Of a DNA stretch of 64,000 nt, positions 8,300-64,000 are shown one piece after another (positions within the stretch are counted from its first letter, which is position 1; each line of letters begins with the position of its first letter). The DNA comes from a virus. Taxonomy: Duplodnaviria > Heunggongvirae > Uroviricota > Caudoviricetes. Under the pieces are notes generated by a model that saw only the letters and a program-made list of their open reading frames with translations, was not told the origin of the DNA and made no database searches. The stretch is taken from positions 98,789-162,788 of IMG/VR virus record IMGVR_UViG_2974506819_000001; one strand, given 5' to 3'. The translations under genes were made by a program, and so were the position numbers.

Positions 8300-11200
8300 G
8301 TGATTATTATCGAGCGTTGGAAAGAACCTCCCGTTCTCGACACCCCCGAGCCGAAGTTTGGTGAGGTGATACGCAGCCTTAACGATTTGTTGTTTTTAGC
8401 CGAACAGCAAACCCAACAGTTTAATGCCAGCACCACCGCTAAGCTCGACACCATTAAAACCAAACTGACCCGTTTCAGTGTGGACCTGCCTGCACGTATT
8501 GATGTTCACTTGAACGGTAAAGGTGCGATGCACGGTGAAACCAGAAACACCATCGGGTTAAGTAAAGTCGACAACTTCCGTACGGCGACGCTGACAGAAC
8601 AACGTGACATGGTCGATGTGGATGCCCTGTGTACTCCAGCCGGTGTGCAGGCCGCTGTAGACAAGAACAACTCGTTCCGTCAAGAAGACTACCAAAAGAA
8701 CGACCTGTTCCCATTTGGCAGTATTCATACCCCTGACCTGTACCCGCGTGTTTCCACCAACTGGAAGAACGTACCTTACTTCCAAAACGATTACTGTACG
8801 TTGGGTTATCAAAACGACCGTGTCATTGTTTCCCCTAAACAAGACGCCAGCAAATACAGTGGGTTCACTGGCTTTGTATCGGACTCCTTGCAAGCAGCCT
8901 CGATGATGTTGCTGAACGAGCAGTCGGATATGGCGATGAGTTACCTGGGTGAAGGATGGGGGATGCGTGGAGCTCAGACGTCGGATAACAAGGTTGCTGT
9001 GTTTCGTCCGCTGGCTAACCTGAAAAAATTCAACTACCCCAGCCAGATGAACCTGCCGGGCAGTAAAGCCTACATCCTGTGGGATGAATACATCACCGAT
9101 TTGGTGCAAGGCTTTGCGGTGAGTGTGGATGTGTCCGGTAGCACGATCTCTGTGTACCATGACGTGTTTAAAGCACTCAACCCTACCACTGACCCTACGT
9201 TAACTTCCGCGGTCTCCTTGGGGGTCTTAACGTCCTTAACGTGGATTGGTGGGTTGGACTTGGTGCCGGTACGCGGTAGCCACGCCTACAACCTGTACAA
9301 CTTCATTGATGCGGACCCAGGTGTTACCATTGCGGTAAACCCAGCGGCACGTATTAAAGTCAGCCCGACCTTAATCTGGGCAGTGCAGGACAAAGAGATT
9401 TACGTCCATATTGCCGTGCCGGTTATTGTCGCAGCTAACGGTAAATCCAAAGAGTATGTTCTGCGGTTTACGGAAAGCTGGAACGTGGCAGGGATTAACA
9501 ACGGGTCGCAAATCTCGACTACACAGTTAGGGGTCTTAACCAAAGACTACGTTAACGCCAATCTGGAAATCCGTGACACGCCCAAATGGATGATGCCCTG
9601 CGACTGGACTGACGCACTTAACCCTGTAGGGTTACCGGGTGTCTTCCTGAAGTCCGGGTACGTTATTCAGGCGCGTTCAACGAAGTACGGGATTAAGGTC
9701 AAGTACTCGACCACGCCACTGAAATCCAGTCTGGAGTGGATTAACGGTTACAAGACCGCGAAGAAACCGTCGTCTGCAGTAACCCGTACCTTCTCTCCGG
9801 GTCGTTACCTGTCCTTTGGGGAAATCCCAGAACGTATCCTGCCAATGGATGTGTCTAACGGGGTTACTCGTTACCTGTCCTATCAGGACATTAACAAGAA
9901 GCATGGTTACGGTTGGACAGAACACACCTGGTTCAACGACAAGGTGATGAAAGCAGGCAGTCCGGTGAACACCCACAGTGCGTTGTCTCCGGATAACTCC
10001 ATTGTGTACGAGTTCAGTAATGACTTCAACAAATCCCTGGTAATCAAAGCCGGTAAAAATGGCGGGATTGCGACCAGTGGCATGGCCTTTACCTTCGCCA
10101 ATGATTTTGTTGGCAAAGACGGGTTCAGCTACCAGAGCGGGATTGTGAAACCAGGAGTTGACGTGGCATTGGGTAAACCCATTATCGCGGCAATGCAGAC
10201 CCATGGCCTGAAGATACTGAAACGCGCTGCAGCGCAATACGGTACCGGTTACGATGCGCGTAAATCTGAGCTGACTAACCAGGTCTACTGTTTCGACAAC
10301 AGCAAAATCCTCGTGATTATCAGCGACGGTCTTGCTTACGCCGAAGCCGGCCTCTTTACCTACCGTATTGAAAACGGGGTATTGAACGCAGAGATTCCAT
10401 TAACGGATGACCAGTTCTTCCGTATTACCGACAGCACCAAGCGACCGAGTTTGTTAAGTCGTACCAGTGCTACCGGTGATGGGGTCAACCACCTGTTTGC
10501 GGACCTGCTCATTTATCAGGAAGATGATGACACGTTCCATGTCGGTGTACCGCGTGCCTTCGGTCATGTGTTTGGTGACCTGACGTTCTCTATCACCAAC
10601 TACCGTACCAAACCGGCCTTCACACCTCGTATCACGAACCCAGCGCGTCTGTACAGCAATGATTCGCCGATTGATGTGGTGGAAGAGCTCTATCCTCAAG
10701 TACTGGCTACGACCTTTGGTCTGTTTGCTTTCCAACCGAGCATCACGTCAGCAGTACAAACGCGTCTGCAGCAAGCGGGTGGGTCGTTTACTATGGATCC
10801 TTATCTGCCTCCAGATGCGTATTACTGTATCGTGCCGAGCGGGACCCGTTGTATCCTGGGGGGTCGTTCAGTCACTCTGGAACGCAGCTACTACCTGCCG
10901 TTTGATGGTACCGACAACACGCACTTCTATCTGACCCGTAACGGTGACGATGTGCTGTTGGAGAAATCCATTGGACTCATGGAACCGAGTAACAGTTCGG
11001 TGTTGTACGCTTACTACCATCCTGGTGAGCTGACCATTGTACCGTCGTATATCGTGTTGGATGACCATGTGCTAAGTTATGCTCGTCGTGGTTCGGCTAT
11101 CCCGGTAACGTTGGATACCGGCACGGCAATCGGTAGCAACGTGTTCTTCCGTCGTGGTGATGTTAACTACGTGGATGTCCCGGTTGCACAGTTCGAGCTG

Positions 11201-15172: not shown

Positions 15173-15186
15173 CAATAGTTTTTCAG

Positions 15187-15210
15187 ACCTACATTATTAG
15201 GCTGATAGAG
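15187..15210 (+). promoter_or_regulatory. Degenerate promoter-like motif copy (GACCTACATTATTAGGCTGATAG) upstream of the SLT gene, overlapping a 10-bp-stem 5'UTR hairpin
   Basis: First half matches CTACATTATTA; second half diverges. Confidence 0.3.
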
Positions 15211-25637: not shown

Positions 25638-25760
25638 TGCTCCCCTGCCCTCGTCCTACGGGACGGGGGTGGGGTTAATCTATAAGAAATTTCATCTCTA
25701 AATTATTATCGTGTATGTAGACCACCTATATACACTTATCCAATCAAGAGGACACAAGTA

Positions 25761-26330: not shown

Positions 26331-26347
26331 GATATAGAAATGTTCAC

Positions 26348-26394
26348 GTCTATATAGTTAGGGTGAATAAGTAATACATATTTATTCTTATAAT
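26348..26394 (+). promoter_or_regulatory. Conserved promoter-like motif copy (GTCTATATAGTTAGGGTGAATAA) followed 18 nt later by TATAAT
   Basis: Seen in sequence; near-identical copy at 43901-43923. Confidence 0.5.
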
Positions 26395-27957: not shown

Positions 27958-28241
27958 CGTAGCGGGCTGGGTATCCAGCCCCTATAGAAAAGTGAAAACC
28001 ATTGCCATGGTTTTAACCCAACCGGTAAGAGTCCTTTGGACCGCCTCCTGTTCGAGGCCATTTTTCTATAGTCACCTCGTTAATGCCAACACATCTGATA
28101 CGTAGATGCCTTAGGAATCCTTTCTGATTCCGGGAGAAAAAGGAATTTCTCCTTCTTTTTATTCCGTGGCCTTCCCGTAGTTATCTACGGGAGGGTCCAT
28201 ACTACAACAATCATTTTTATTTTTTGTAAGGAAACCGTTTC

Positions 28242-28877: not shown

Positions 28878-29328
28878 GATTGCATACATGACCTATCTGG
28901 TGAATGAGATACCGATTGTGTTTCATTCTGCGCTTATGTCGCTGGCTAAGGAGCTCGTAGCATATGAGCAACAGCTTACGATGGATGTGCTGGGAAAACA
29001 GCGTCACATGGTTCCTGTGGACTCTGTGAAGGACTTCTTTATTGAAGACAGCGTGGTTGTGGTGGCCTTTAATGAGCGGGAAGAGTTACCGGTGGGGTTC
29101 TGTAGCTATTGGGCAGAACCGACCCAGGGTCGGCTGATTATCGACACGGTTTACGTTGCTCCTGCTTACCGTCAACAAGGCATTGCCAGGGCCATGTTAG
29201 CAGGACCCCTGGACATGGGGTTCTCACTTATTGACATTCACGCCATGGCGAATAACCCCGCAGCGTTAAAACTGTATGCGTCATTAGGATTTAAACCCTA
29301 TATTACTACGATGACGAAAGTAAATTAA
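28870..29328 (+). CDS. GNAT-family N-acetyltransferase (152 aa)
   Basis: ATG 28870 with SD aaggaag, overlapping upstream stop by 8 nt (ATGTCTAA); motif A YRQQGIARAML; ORF-track N-terminal extension rejected. Confidence 0.65.
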   Translation: MSKIAYMTYLVNEIPIVFHSALMSLAKELVAYEQQLTMDVLGKQRHMVPVDSVKDFFIEDSVVVVAFNEREELPVGFCSYWAEPTQGRLIIDTVYVAPAYRQQGIARAMLAGPLDMGFSLIDIHAMANNPAALKLYASLGFKPYITTMTKVN

Positions 29329-38409: not shown

Positions 38410-38465
38410 AAAAAGCAATACCATAACCGCACGGGGGAAACCCTGTGCGGTTAAATGGAACTCAG

Positions 38466-38488
38466 TCCTATATTACTAAGGTGAATAT
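38466..38488 (+). promoter_or_regulatory. Conserved promoter-like motif copy (TCCTATATTACTAAGGTGAATAT)
   Basis: 21 nt upstream of ATG 38509. Confidence 0.45.
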
Positions 38489-39377: not shown

Positions 39378-39500
39378 CTCTCTACCCTGGGCTCACGCCT
39401 GGGGTAGGTAGTCTGCTTTATTTTTAAGTGTTTTTTCACGGTGCGTTTAATCTATTGTATTAACTGTTCTGATGAGGATAACTTATAATTATTTTCATCC

Positions 39501-39520
39501 CTACATCATTAAGGTGAGTA
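39501..39520 (+). promoter_or_regulatory. Conserved promoter-like motif copy (CTACATCATTAAGGTGAGTA)
   Basis: 45 nt upstream of ATG 39566. Confidence 0.4.
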
Positions 39521-40006: not shown

Positions 40007-41038
40007 ATGTCTACACAAACTGTATTAAATAAGTTCGGCACCACCACCATTCATGACCGCATTGTTAAGCTCACCTCTATGCAACCCATGGTTATCATGG
40101 AGATGCGTTTCAGTGAAACGGTCTATGACGACGGGGGCGTCTTCCGTGGCAATAGCCTGATGTTTATTTGTCCTGAGCTGAAAACCTCGCTCTACATTCA
40201 ACCTAGCGGTTACGGTGCGCTAATTAAGGCACTGGGAAATGTGGTGTCGGAGGGTCATCAGAAGTTCAAGGATAACCAAATCCCTAACCGGTTTAGCAAT
40301 ACGGTGGGTGAGGTTACGGTCAGTGTCACCCAACGGGGTGTCAGTGTCTCTTATAAAGGCCAGGCAAACATGATGGTGTATCGCAGTCCACACGCCAAGG
40401 TTACCAGCGAATTTGGAGGACTCAGCAGTCAGAAATTGCTGTCCCGTCATATCCAATGTGCTGACGATATCTTGACCGCGTTGATACCTACCGTCGCTGC
40501 GGGTGATGCCTGGATTACTAAACGGGCGTTGCCAGAGAACAACGACCACGGTGAGATTGTTCAACCTCACATGTTGTACCGTCAAGTTCCAAGCAGTGAA
40601 GCAGGACGTGGGTTAACCACCATGTCTATCCTGGTTCACAAATGCCTGAACTTCACGGAGTCAGTTTACCGTGTTCAGCTTTCTACCTCGAACACCATCC
40701 TGAGTTTGTATGATGAGCCCAGTGACCATAACCCGCGTCCAAAGTGGGTATTGATTCAGCTGCGGAAAGCCCTCATCACGCTGAAACACCTGATGGAAGA
40801 TAATCCTGACGTTCCCCAGCGCGTTGACCTGTTTGACTGTACTGCGCAGTATGACATGTTCAAAGTGTACAACGGGTACGTGGCGTCGGTTCCCTCTAAA
40901 CGGGGAATGCGCATTGTCATTAACTACGACTACGTTCCGGCGTATTCTAAGTTAAGCTGGTTGGACAGTGAGATAGATATGGACGATGTCCTTGCAGCAT
41001 TTGACCACATCATTGAACACTATCCTGTCGATAATTGA
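40007..41038 (+). CDS. Hypothetical protein, paralogue A (343 aa)
   Basis: SD aaaaaggaag; shares RGMRIVINYDY...SKLSWL with next gene (HRRVVINFDQ...SKAHWV). Confidence 0.55.
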   Translation: MSTQTVLNKFGTTTIHDRIVKLTSMQPMVIMEMRFSETVYDDGGVFRGNSLMFICPELKTSLYIQPSGYGALIKALGNVVSEGHQKFKDNQIPNRFSNTVGEVTVSVTQRGVSVSYKGQANMMVYRSPHAKVTSEFGGLSSQKLLSRHIQCADDILTALIPTVAAGDAWITKRALPENNDHGEIVQPHMLYRQVPSSEAGRGLTTMSILVHKCLNFTESVYRVQLSTSNTILSLYDEPSDHNPRPKWVLIQLRKALITLKHLMEDNPDVPQRVDLFDCTAQYDMFKVYNGYVASVPSKRGMRIVINYDYVPAYSKLSWLDSEIDMDDVLAAFDHIIEHYPVDN

Positions 41039-41108
41039 GACTCAGTCTCTTGTGGCAGCAAGGGTAACAGCTTGCTGCTTTTTTCAATCCCAATAGAAGG
41101 ATTTTAAT

Positions 41109-42023
41109 ATGTTTACTAAAGTTGATATGCATCGTGTCGAACGTGTCGTCTGTGATAACCCACTGGTGACCTGTTCATTCGTTATGTCTGTAGCGGACGA
41201 TAATGGAAAATTGAACAACGTTTCTCGTTTTGAATTCCACAACTACAACACCGGTCAGGTTCTACGAATCATTGGCGGTAAAAAGAAAGACCTGGTGAAA
41301 GATTTGAAAACCATGTTGGAAAACAGAAACACTAATCAACAGGTTGGCGATACCAACAAACGGTTGTTGATTAATGCGTTGGGTGAACGCAAGACGGAAA
41401 TCAGTTACTCGTTCCGGGGGTATCGTCATGTGTTGACTCATGGCACCACGGAATACGTCACCACTGAGCATCTGAAACGGTTGATCGCGATTCTGGACTG
41501 GTACATGGAGATGCGTCTTCCATGGATTCACGACGGGTTCTTTGACAACCGGGTTAAGGTTTCTCCGGACCAAACAGCCGAAGACCTTACCGTACGTATT
41601 ATCCGTAAGAAAGATTCCAAGAACCCACCGATGGCCATTGCATTAGAGAATGACATCAACAACGGTCAACGCACGGTTCGGTTCTTAAACGGAATGTCGT
41701 CACTGGTGCTGGTTGATTATACTGCTGGGCTGAAAGACACCACCATTAAGAAAGTGCTGGAAAAAATAAGTAATACTTTACTGCACGTTCTAAACTATGA
41801 CCAGAAATGCCACAACATCGATTTGTTTCATCATTCCGATGACATCTCTCCGGAGATTTTAACCTACAAAGGTTATGTGGCACTTTCTCAGGATGCCAAG
41901 CATCGCCGTGTGGTGATTAATTTCGACCAGAATATAATGTGTTCAAAAGCACACTGGGTTCACGAACGTTTCTTTACCAAAGCAGTACAAGAAGCTCTAT
42001 CTGATATTATCGCGGTTTATTAA
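41109..42023 (+). CDS. Hypothetical protein, paralogue B (304 aa)
   Basis: SD gaagga; paralogous to 40007-41038; hairpin 42031-42057 follows. Confidence 0.55.
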   Translation: MFTKVDMHRVERVVCDNPLVTCSFVMSVADDNGKLNNVSRFEFHNYNTGQVLRIIGGKKKDLVKDLKTMLENRNTNQQVGDTNKRLLINALGERKTEISYSFRGYRHVLTHGTTEYVTTEHLKRLIAILDWYMEMRLPWIHDGFFDNRVKVSPDQTAEDLTVRIIRKKDSKNPPMAIALENDINNGQRTVRFLNGMSSLVLVDYTAGLKDTTIKKVLEKISNTLLHVLNYDQKCHNIDLFHHSDDISPEILTYKGYVALSQDAKHRRVVINFDQNIMCSKAHWVHERFFTKAVQEALSDIIAVY

Positions 42024-43876: not shown

Positions 43877-43900
43877 AAATTAATCTGGAGTTGTTCTCAG

Positions 43901-43923
43901 GTCTATATAGTTAAGGTGAATAA
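43901..43923 (+). promoter_or_regulatory. Conserved promoter-like motif copy (GTCTATATAGTTAAGGTGAATAA)
   Basis: 47 nt upstream of ATG 43970; 22/23 identical to the 26348 copy. Confidence 0.5.
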
Positions 43924-45751: not shown

Positions 45752-45797
45752 AACTCCTGGGGCTTCGGTCCTGGGAGTTATTGTCATTATTTTTTCA
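45752..45797 (+). terminator. Rho-independent terminator
   Basis: Hairpin aactcctgggg-cttcgg-tcctgggagtt then attattttttc. Confidence 0.6.
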
Positions 45798-45860
45798 CAC
45801 CTACATTATCTATATGTAAGACAACCGGTTTCTTACTCATTTAACTCAAAAGGATAGATC

Positions 45861-52609: not shown

Positions 52610-52640
52610 GGAGTGCCCTTAACATACAGTAATTTTTACG

Positions 52641-52661
52641 TCTACATTATTAACATGAATA
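52641..52661 (+). promoter_or_regulatory. Conserved promoter-like motif copy (CTACATTATTAACATGAATAA)
   Basis: 33 nt upstream of ATG 52693. Confidence 0.4.
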
Positions 52662-58165: not shown

Positions 58166-58181
58166 TCTGCAGAAGTATTCG

Positions 58182-58205
58182 TCTCTACATCATTAACGTG
58201 AATCT
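58182..58205 (+). promoter_or_regulatory. Conserved promoter-like motif copy (TCTCTACATCATTAACGTGAATCT)
   Basis: about 18 nt upstream of ATG 58221. Confidence 0.4.
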
Positions 58206-61226: not shown

Positions 61227-61260
61227 ACTACTCCTACCCAAAAGGTAGGAGTAGTTTTTC
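61227..61260 (+). terminator. Rho-independent terminator
   Basis: 11-bp stem ctactcctacc / ggtaggagtag, loop caaaa, then ttttt. Confidence 0.75.
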
Positions 61261-63734: not shown

Positions 63735-64000
63735 ATGAAACAATATTTAGATATGGCGCGTCATGTACTGGAAACCGGCGTTGAAAAGAAAGACCGTACC
63801 GGCACAGGGACCCTGTCTGTATTTGGTTACCAAATGCGTTTTGACCTGGGTGAGGGTTTCCCGCTGGTGACCACGAAGAAGTGCCATATGCGTTCTATTA
63901 TCCATGAACTGCTGTGGTTCCTTAAAGGCGACACCAACATTCAATACCTCACTGACAACGGTGTCACCATTTGGGATGAGTGGGCGCTGAAAGAAGACGA
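63735..64000 (+). CDS. thyA: Thymidylate synthase (ThyA), N-terminal part; continues beyond window
   Basis: Near-canonical N-terminus [72 protein letters not shown]. Confidence 0.9.

Follow-up and report, generated by a model that had tools for sequence, protein, structure and literature searches.

What reads the short element that recurs ahead of start codons in a 64,000-nt stretch of tailed-phage DNA (IMG/VR record IMGVR_UViG_2974506819_000001, positions 98,789 to 162,788; hereafter the window), and what is its role there? A first-pass annotation, made from the letters of the window, described the element, e.g. the copy at 26348, as a promoter-like motif of ~22 nt. The window matches Erwinia phage vB_EamM_RisingSun (MF459646.1, 235,108 bp) at 100% identity, its first position corresponding to record position 98,789. 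RisingSun is a jumbo phage of the nucleus-forming kind, the genus of which, Risingsunvirus, is placed in the Chimalliviridae; its genome is 94.7% coding, with 243 annotated coding sequences (CDS), and Joad (~95% identity) is its sole close relative. The analysis described here makes it very probable that the motif represents the early promoters of this chimallivirus, read by an injected virion RNA polymerase (vRNAP) and starting at an invariant G (G16, numbered from the first C of the motif, C1), an assignment made by analogy with phages including phiKZ.

A strand-specific element ahead of genes

Sites were collected with a position matrix iterated over the whole RisingSun genome until convergence, using a first-order Markov model as the null. 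The sequences compared were the entire annotated RisingSun genome, the entire Joad genome, the first 100 kb of phiKZ, and 42 kb of EL around the chimallin gene. Scores from the first matrix were circular, in that sites were scored by a matrix containing them, and were replaced by leave-one-out scores and by scores from a matrix made with other phages.

The whole genome has 28 sites on the + strand, 11 of them inside the window (Table 1), with no site of comparable score on the - strand of the genome in the matrix scan; the Markov null predicts 0.25 matches at 14 bits or more for both strands together. Leave-one-out scores range from 13.4 to 41.3 bits, the best non-site on either strand of the genome reaching 12.4 bits. 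A degenerate consensus, allowing up to three mismatches, has six matches in the window (beginning at 26350, 38468, 39501, 43903, 52642, and 58185), all on the + strand, where shuffled sequences lead to an expectation of 0.06. The circularity of the first scan is removed by a matrix derived only from phiKZ and EL sites, with which RisingSun sites occupy ranks 1-25 of the ~470,000 positions in the RisingSun genome; with a matrix derived from phiKZ sites alone, 19 RisingSun sites fall within the top 20 genome positions.

Despite the high coding density of the genome, 22 of the 28 sites are wholly non-coding (binomial p = 2e-23), and all 28 lie ahead of + strand genes with which they are co-oriented; the motif is thus, as first described, always in the + orientation, rather than being just as common within genes and on either strand. 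In 27 sites C1 lies 13-118 nt from the start codon, the exception being a borderline site at record 91778, within gp89. Of the 87 + strand genes that have at least 40 nt of gap upstream, only 23 carry the motif, which therefore marks a subset of transcription units; this share is compatible with a subset or temporal class of genes.

All nine copies listed in the first-pass annotation exist, with coordinates good to 1-3 nt (the copy placed at 52641 starts at 52642), and the three described there as weaker are genuine, those at 15189, 45801, and 61301 scoring 33.4, 25.4, and 24.0 bits, respectively, by the leave-one-out procedure, compared with 12.4 bits for the best non-site. Two window copies had been missed, at 25698 and, weaker, at 29298; the latter is less certain because it is within coding sequence. 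The length of ~22 nt was an underestimate, in that the element covers ~34 nt, A-N4-TTTTCA-N3-CTAYATTAYTAAnGTGAATA, and reaches up to the TTTTCA block and a conserved A. C1, T2, A5, and G16 are invariant in the 28 RisingSun sites, and T6 and T15, like the T-tract and the A far upstream, each occur in 24-27 of them. Counting from G16 as +1 places the conserved blocks at -15 to -5, at -24 to -20 (TTT(C)A, the three T positions of which are present in 24-27 of 28 sites), and at -30 (A, in 26 of 28); the AT-rich box CTAYATTAY extends from -15 to -7, with G16 exactly 6 nt after it.

Four copies (window 26350 and 43903; record 26591 and 88212) constitute a near-identical sub-family, GTCTATATAGTTARGGTGAATAA, with A-G at box positions 7-8, where T-A is usual; the copy at 88212 is a variant, AGTCTATATAACTTGGGTGAATAA. 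The sub-family may reflect promoter duplication or a strength variant.

The box raises the question of whether these are strong host sigma70 promoters in the style of T4 early promoters, with the Erwinia amylovora RNA polymerase (RNAP) using TAYATT as a -10 element and the T-tract as a spacer or UP-like element. TATATT has 5/6 of the TATAAT bases, the critical T-12, A-11, and T-7 among them, transcription from a sigma70 promoter would likewise begin near G14-G16, and two or three copies (45801, 52642) overlap 9/12 sigma70-type matches. By contrast, no -35 element is conserved 16-18 nt upstream, the TTTTCA block being only 3 nt before C1 and so in the would-be spacer, and sigma70-type matches are not enriched in the window (21 versus 26.7, and 25 versus 27.8, expected from shuffles). 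Moreover, 7-8 of ten strong copies are not called by a sigma70 scan, the invariant C-15 and T-1/G+1 have no role in sigma70 recognition, and the same element in phiKZ is part of a programme that is reportedly insensitive to rifampicin (PMC5312081, PMC13282480). Of a sigma70 promoter only the -10-like TAYATT is present. Host sigma70 use as the explanation of the motif is considered very unlikely and was rejected, and the first-pass view that the motif is not a sigma70 -35/-10 pair is upheld.

Polymerases and genes behind the element

RisingSun encodes two sets of split beta/beta' multisubunit RNAP, one virion and one non-virion (nvRNAP), the subunits of which were identified by tblastn versus phiKZ, PHROG profiles, and a PDB search. 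The vRNAP subunits include gp50 (PHIKZ080 family) and gp229/gp230, which match virion RNAP beta, a homolog being annotated as 'virion-associated'. The nvRNAP subunits are gp29 (PHIKZ055 family), gp39 (PHIKZ068 family, phrog_3209), gp43 (PHIKZ071), gp44 (PHIKZ074), and gp85 (ortholog of PHIKZ123; PDB 7ogp_E, E = 3e-16). The nuclear-shell protein chimallin is gp28 (phrog_4795, 2.5e-181), and gp17 is annotated as a PhuZ-like tubulin; PDB sequence searches with gp28 and gp39 gave no matches, both assignments coming from the PHROG profiles.

Copies of the motif head the operons at record 21779 (gp28, chimallin, with gp29, nvRNAP beta'), 31379 (gp39), 36303 (gp43-44), 82706 (gp84-85), and 14394 (gp17, PhuZ), such that all five nvRNAP subunit genes are no more than two genes from a copy. 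The motif also heads gp190 (GroEL-like) and many small hypothetical genes; of ten first downstream genes tested in the window, nine have no Pfam family and the tenth encodes an SLT transglycosylase, in agreement with the earlier description of the downstream genes as mostly small accessory ones. When the 28 sites are compared with the annotation, no copy is ahead of gp50, gp229/230, or annotated structural genes, bar the borderline site within gp89.

Among the 243 annotated CDS there is no single-subunit RNAP at the level of annotation, RNAP-related products all being beta/beta' fragments, and no gp55-like sigma is annotated among them, although no dedicated search for one was made. The first-pass annotation had proposed as reader either an RNAP or a sigma factor that is phage-encoded or phage-modified. 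The two encoded split polymerases and the homology to phiKZ and EL promoters described below argue, by analogy, for a phage-encoded RNAP, whereas no sigma factor is implied.

Which of the two polymerases is involved is pertinent, as the motif might be a middle-class promoter, read by newly made nvRNAP or by vRNAP in need of a newly made factor. Several promoter classes occur in phiKZ-like phages, PHIKZ054 having both an early and a middle promoter (PMC8244752), and middle promoters drive some of the nvRNAP genes of 201phi2-1 (PMC11512511). Against a middle-class assignment, nvRNAP cannot be needed for making its own five subunits, all of which are behind the motif. In published work, the motif of middle promoters is a weak AT-rich/TACT element centred near -22 to -24, and that of late promoters is TATG at the start site (PMC7598289, PMC8244752); neither resembles the RisingSun element, which matches the early motif both in sequence and in its -10/-20/-30 layout. 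A middle-class function is therefore very improbable, and early promoters for vRNAP continue to be the preferred assignment.

Comparison with early promoters of other phages

The phiKZ sites used for comparison come from our own genome scan, in which the RisingSun matrix finds ten sites at 17 bits or more, all on the + strand. The intergenic + strand sites share the architecture aTTTaAAnAn-TATATTAC-tAAnnTG-a and precede PHIKZ005, 006, 010.1, 036, 041.3, 054 (chimallin), 058.1, 068 (the nvRNAP fifth subunit), and 076. The TATATTAC core is here read directly from the phiKZ genome. At PHIKZ054 an early-promoter motif is present at the primary transcription start site (TSS) mapped by differential RNA sequencing, together with a middle promoter (Wicke et al., PMC8244752); the phiKZ early motif is described as an extended -10 box with a T-rich motif upstream of -19 (PMC8244752), and phiKZ starts have also been mapped by ONT-cappable-seq (Putzeys et al., PMC10914365). 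The early promoters of phiKZ are attributed to Ceyssens et al. (2014), as cited in a review (PMC7598289). Like RisingSun, phiKZ has the TATATTAC core followed after 6 nt by an invariant G, a TAA-nn-TG context, a T-rich block lying upstream of -19, and conserved sequence around -30, with sites on the leading strand only, in intergenic gaps, and ahead of the chimallin and nvRNAP fifth-subunit genes. RisingSun departs from phiKZ in the invariant C that precedes its box (CTAYAT), in accepting Y at the third and eighth box positions, in a preference for TTTTCA over the TTTaAA of phiKZ, and in a GTGAATA start region that is stronger. Transcript mapping backs the phiKZ sites, whereas those of RisingSun are predictions.

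EL is the closest sequenced relative of RisingSun outside Joad (53% amino acid identity in vRNAP beta). Its record (NC_007623.1) annotates ATTTGAAACCTAAATTATT and ATTTTAAACCTACATTATC, which are bioinformatic predictions, as 'putative phage promoter', and these correspond to two-thirds of the RisingSun element, on its upstream side. In the 42 kb examined, EL has five copies, which lie ahead of an HslV-like gene, PhuZ, chimallin, a gp68-like gene, and the nvRNAP beta/beta' operon, the last four being placed as in RisingSun. G16 is invariant in EL, but the segment between the box and G16 is variable, without the TAAnGTGAATA block.

More distantly, the early consensus of AR9, which is outside the Chimalliviridae (PMC13282480), is AAATATATATTAT-N6-G(+1), and phiKZ and phiR1-37 likewise have a TSS conserved 6 nt past the element (PMC5312081). 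A virion multisubunit RNAP reads the promoters of AR9 and phiR1-37 early in infection and needs no new protein synthesis to do so (PMC5312081). These promoters share with those of RisingSun an extended AT-rich box containing TATATTAT and, 6 nt on, a conserved G, which in RisingSun is the predicted start. Unlike RisingSun, these are uracil-DNA phages of another lineage with other hosts, the promoters of which have a longer upstream A/T run and lack C-15 and the TTTTCA block. In 201phi2-1, as in RisingSun with its predicted starts, an AT-rich motif ~10 bp before the TSS, conserved at -10, -20, and -30, precedes hypothetical genes (PMC11512511); the same three regions are conserved in phiKZ early promoters (PMC11512511), and the published AT-rich box of early promoters is centred near -10 (PMC5312081, PMC7598289). 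Only for phiKZ and AR9 has early transcription been reported to withstand rifampicin and to need no new protein synthesis (PMC5312081, PMC13282480). In the phiKZ cascade, injected vRNAP transcribes early genes, including those for nvRNAP subunits, with nvRNAP then transcribing the later classes (PMC7598289, PMC13282480). At the sequence level the RisingSun element thus has all the features of a phiKZ-type vRNAP early promoter.

The right analogue of the motif is this phiKZ type of promoter, rather than the T4 late and T7-type promoters to which it was first compared. T7-type promoters, with the consensus TAATACGACTCACTATAG, are read by a single-subunit RNAP; T4 late promoters have a TATAAATA box at -10 and are read by the host core polymerase with the phage sigma gp55, gp33, and a sliding clamp. 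Both share with RisingSun a compact, contiguous, phage-specific promoter class, a start (predicted in RisingSun) at or next to a conserved block, and the lack of a sigma70 -35/-10 pair. The RisingSun motif is, however, unrelated to either consensus, and the polymerase would, by analogy with phiKZ, be a sigma-less split multisubunit enzyme delivered in the virion.

Predicted starts and leaders

The G located 6 nt past the box is present in 28/28 RisingSun, 5/5 EL, and 10/10 phiKZ sites at the sequence level. That starts in phiKZ, phiR1-37, and AR9 map to this position (PMC5312081) supports, by analogy, the earlier proposal that transcription begins within or just after the motif. The leaders so predicted are ~21-103 nt long genome-wide and 21-74 nt in the window.

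Strict strand specificity and a position upstream of genes would also suit a motif in leader RNA, i.e. a stability or translation element, and the phage encodes an XRE-family HTH protein (gp180), such that an operator for a phage regulator might be considered. The element is without the dyad symmetry typical of operators, and from +1 to +40 the predicted leaders have less structure than 40-mers taken at random from the genome (-4.0 versus -6.4 kcal/mol), on which basis the RNA-structure reading was rejected. The variable distance to the start codon (13-118 nt) argues against a translation signal; ~40% of copies are directly after terminator-like hairpins, so that no upstream transcript would carry them, and the homologous phiKZ element is tied to mapped transcription starts (PMC8244752, PMC5312081). 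Functions of these non-promoter types are scarcely credible. Small hairpins seen by eye at two predicted 5' ends (26350, GAATAA...TTATTC; 43903, a similar stem) were judged not to be general.

Conservation in Joad and in uncultivated phages

All 28 RisingSun sites are kept in Joad, with a divergence between the two phages of ~0.5% from -20 to +30, compared with 3-5% further out. A scan of IMG/VR for CTAYATTAYTAANGTGAATA gave seven loci, six of which are in one group of uncultivated phage contigs (81-223 kb, three being ~220 kb; GC ~53%), including the uncultivated virus genomes 3300011906_000002, 3300011361_000001, and 3300014012_000001. In these six loci an exact CTATATTATTAAGGTGAATA lies ~155 nt upstream of a gp43 (nvRNAP beta) homolog that is 25% identical, five of the six having further flanking synteny (gp41, gp44, or gp45 homologs). 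The group has gp39/gp41/gp43/gp44/gp45/gp50 synteny with RisingSun at 20-30% amino acid identity, and is, to judge from these sequences, an unsampled chimallivirus lineage. Retention of the motif at the orthologous position despite divergence of the protein to 25% identity is strong evidence of function. The motif is not specific to one phage, as the first-pass wording had it, but common to the Chimalliviridae.

Proposed mechanism

It is proposed that a vRNAP of split beta/beta' polypeptides, including gp50, gp229, and gp230, is packaged in the RisingSun virion, would enter the cell together with the DNA, and would recognise the ~34-nt + strand element without host RNAP or new protein synthesis. 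The parts recognised would be the CTAYATTAY '-10' box (-15 to -7), the TTT(C)A T-tract (-24 to -20), and the A at -30, with transcription predicted to start at the invariant G 6 nt past the box (T-1/G+1, within 'GTGAATA'). The 28 promoters would then drive an early set comprising small genes of unassigned function, which may act in host takeover, chimallin gp28, PhuZ gp17, GroEL-like gp190, and all five nvRNAP subunits (gp29, gp39, gp43, gp44, gp85), after which nvRNAP would transcribe genes of the middle and late classes.

Several points weigh against this proposal. Homology to phiKZ, AR9, and phiR1-37 is what the G16 start, the early timing, and the polymerase assignment depend on, and, because the phiKZ sites are from our own scan, their tie to the literature is via verbal descriptions and PHIKZ054 only. 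The TAYATT box is similar to the sigma70 -10 hexamer, with 5/6 of its bases in some copies, and the host polymerase might therefore make some use of it. Joad is too close a relative to reveal position-specific constraint, the motif differing by 0.5% and the non-coding flank by 1.0% (p = 0.27). In the literature examined, direct promoter binding by purified vRNAP is not reported for any member, and in 201phi2-1, where only some nvRNAP subunit genes are near an early promoter (PMC11512511), gene associations of the type observed in RisingSun are indicated to be supportive rather than defining.

Implications

Motif discovery in the RisingSun/Joad genome paper gave only another motif, inside the structural genes gp196-204 (PMC6034870), so the RisingSun promoter set appears to be unreported. 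According to a 2020 review (PMC7598289), a motif of this kind can be found in all jumbo phages that encode an RNAP; the RisingSun element belongs to an already known promoter type and reveals no new mechanism. What it provides is a first, predicted, transcription map for RisingSun and Joad, with 28 predicted transcription units, 11 in the window, each with a start predicted to the nucleotide. Small genes of unassigned function are thereby flagged as probable immediate-early genes, maybe for host takeover, in a phage of the fire-blight pathogen, and corrections to the annotation are indicated for two start codons inside a promoter and one doubtful open reading frame (ORF). With the chimallin, PhuZ, and five nvRNAP subunit genes all directly behind such predicted promoters, RisingSun shows the vRNAP-to-nvRNAP cascade in its tidiest form to date.

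A wider proposal, offered tentatively since it is slightly more apt to fail than to hold, is that the promoter specificity of vRNAP is essentially frozen across the Chimalliviridae, with (C)TATATTAY-N6-G, a -20 T-tract, and a -30 A in RisingSun/Joad, EL, phiKZ, and the uncultivated ~220-kb clade, lineages in which the polymerase subunits are only ~25% identical. This goes somewhat beyond the review, where the motifs are called 'different from phage to phage' (PMC7598289). If it is correct, the early regulon of any chimallivirus, be it a genome or a metagenomic contig, could be annotated with a single matrix, a ~35-bp cassette could serve across hosts as a host-independent, infection-triggered promoter, and the C-15, T-1/G+1, and GTGAATA region of RisingSun would mark lineage-specific tuning of initiation. 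The conservation of the core in very distant relatives suggests, in any case, a matrix for early genes across the family.

Copies and neighbouring hairpins in the window

Table 1. Predicted early-promoter copies and adjacent hairpins, all on the + strand, in window coordinates. Leaders run from the predicted start to the ATG given; bits are leave-one-out scores; MFE, minimum free energy (kcal/mol).
Feature	Sequence	Position	C1	Predicted start	Leader and gene	Score or MFE	Remarks
Promoter copy	ATAGTTTTTCAGACCTACATTATTAGGCTGATAG	15175..15208	15189	G 15204	74 nt, gp104 (SLT lytic transglycosylase, ATG 15278)	33.4 bits	
GC-rich hairpin	CCCCTGCCCTCGTCCTACGGGACGGGGGTGGGG	25642..25674				-29.8 (upstream 65-mer)	directly 5' of 25698 copy
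Promoter copy	AAGAAATTTCATCTCTAAATTATTATCGTGTATG	25684..25717	25698	G 25713	48 nt, gp121 (ATG 25761)	26.4 bits	kept in Joad
Promoter copy	AGAAATGTTCACGTCTATATAGTTAGGGTGAATA	26336..26369	26350	G 26365	67 nt, gp122 (ATG 26432)	33.4 bits	copy named in the first-pass annotation; identical in Joad
Weaker promoter-like copy	TTAGGATTTAAACCCTATATTACTACGATGACGA	29284..29317	29298	G 29313	42 nt, gp126 (ATG 29355)	18.7 bits	C1 within gp125 3' end, 57 nt ahead of gp126
GC-rich hairpin	AACCGCACGGGGGAAACCCTGTGCGGTT	38425..38452				-25.8 (upstream 65-mer)	3' of gp139 (PhoH), directly 5' of 38468 copy
Promoter copy	AATGGAACTCAGTCCTATATTACTAAGGTGAATA	38454..38487	38468	G 38483	26 nt, gp140 (ATG 38509)	30.7 bits	exact phiKZ-type TATATTAC core
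Promoter copy	AATTATTTTCATCCCTACATCATTAAGGTGAGTA	39487..39520	39501	G 39516	50 nt, gp142 (ATG 39566)	37.8 bits	
Promoter copy	AGTTGTTCTCAGGTCTATATAGTTAAGGTGAATA	43889..43922	43903	G 43918	52 nt, gp149 (ATG 43970)	29.1 bits	
Terminator-like hairpin	AACTCCTGGGGCTTCGGTCCTGGGAGTT	45752..45779				-22.4	3' of gp151, 22 nt upstream of 45801 copy; 12-bp stem in terminator scan
Promoter copy	TTATTTTTTCACACCTACATTATCTATATGTAAG	45787..45820	45801	G 45816	45 nt, gp152 (ATG 45861)	25.4 bits	
Promoter copy	AGTAATTTTTACGTCTACATTATTAACATGAATA	52628..52661	52642	G 52657	36 nt, gp165 (ATG 52693)	36.8 bits	in divergent gap adjoining - strand methylase gene gp164
Promoter copy	AGAAGTATTCGTCTCTACATCATTAACGTGAATC	58171..58204	58185	G 58200	21 nt, gp176 (ATG 58221)	28.3 bits	
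Terminator-like hairpin, then T-run	ACTACTCCTACCCAAAAGGTAGGAGTAGT	61227..61255				-20.1	3' of gp181, 46 nt upstream of 61301 copy; 12-bp stem in terminator scan
Promoter copy	ATTGGGTTTGAAACCTATATTACTATTATGAGAA	61287..61320	61301	G 61316	27 nt, gp182 (ATG 61343)	24.0 bits	

About 11 of the 28 promoter copies are 15-50 nt 3' of a strong GC-rich hairpin, forming terminator-then-promoter modules, others of which are located outside the window in the record 82640s, 88150s, 187470s, and 225110s. The hairpin at 25642..25674 is probably the terminator of the preceding transcription unit. Several such hairpins have no T-tail and were hence missed by the intrinsic-terminator scan, a feature which may reflect the terminator requirements of phage polymerases. 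The unusually long (284 nt) gp123-gp124 gap (window 27958-28241) has two + strand terminator-like hairpins (28034-28058, 28132-28153) and no early-promoter copy.

Annotation and other observations

The annotated GTG starts of gp14 and gp32 (record 12337 and 26604) coincide with G14-T15-G16 of strong copies (C1 12324 and 26591). These starts are probably mis-annotated, because the predicted transcript begins at the last base of the GTG codon, and the true starts probably lie downstream. One of the best copies (C1 9081, 69 nt ahead of gp10) is contained in gp9, a 33-amino acid ORF (record 9028-9129) that is probably not a gene.

In Joad (record 125143-126120) a free-standing HNH endonuclease gene (gp122) is inserted right after the third codon of the ortholog of RisingSun gp122 (from window 26432), directly downstream of the promoter copy at 26336..26369. 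The start of the interrupted gene is re-created by synonymous changes (ATGGCCAAGCGCGAC versus ATGGCAAAACGTGAT). From its sequence context, the insertion looks like a homing endonuclease borrowing an early promoter.

With respect to a second promoter class, a search of the other 78 upstream regions for enriched 7-mers yielded nothing beyond T-runs, Shine-Dalgarno-like AAGGA, and TTTTATG. The last is over-represented outside coding sequence, in that 15 of the 26 occurrences in the genome are in the non-coding 5%, with sites at window 8253, 42564, and 44329, and at record 80313, 173947, 184503, 197147(-), and 8781(-). Several are 20-75 nt upstream of structural or - strand genes (gp83, gp196, gp206, gp217, gp8, gp101, gp146, gp150), and in 4 of the 15 non-coding cases the motif is the gene's own ATG or a few nt away. 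Because the phiKZ late consensus is TATG, with G as +1, it may be, by analogy, that the TTTTATG sites are nvRNAP late promoters.

The product names of gp45 and gp240 look to be swapped in MF459646: gp45 (record 40476-42008), annotated as 'putative terminase', is a homolog of the phiKZ gp75 helicase, and gp240 (L005:26548-29847), annotated as 'ATP-dependent DNA helicase', is a homolog of the phiKZ gp25 large terminase. At the end of the window, the thymidylate synthase gene is annotated as two pieces, gp186 and gp188, with a GIY-YIG homing endonuclease gene, gp187, between them (window 63735-64000 onward; record 162523-164748), an arrangement that suggests an intron or other mobile-element interruption.

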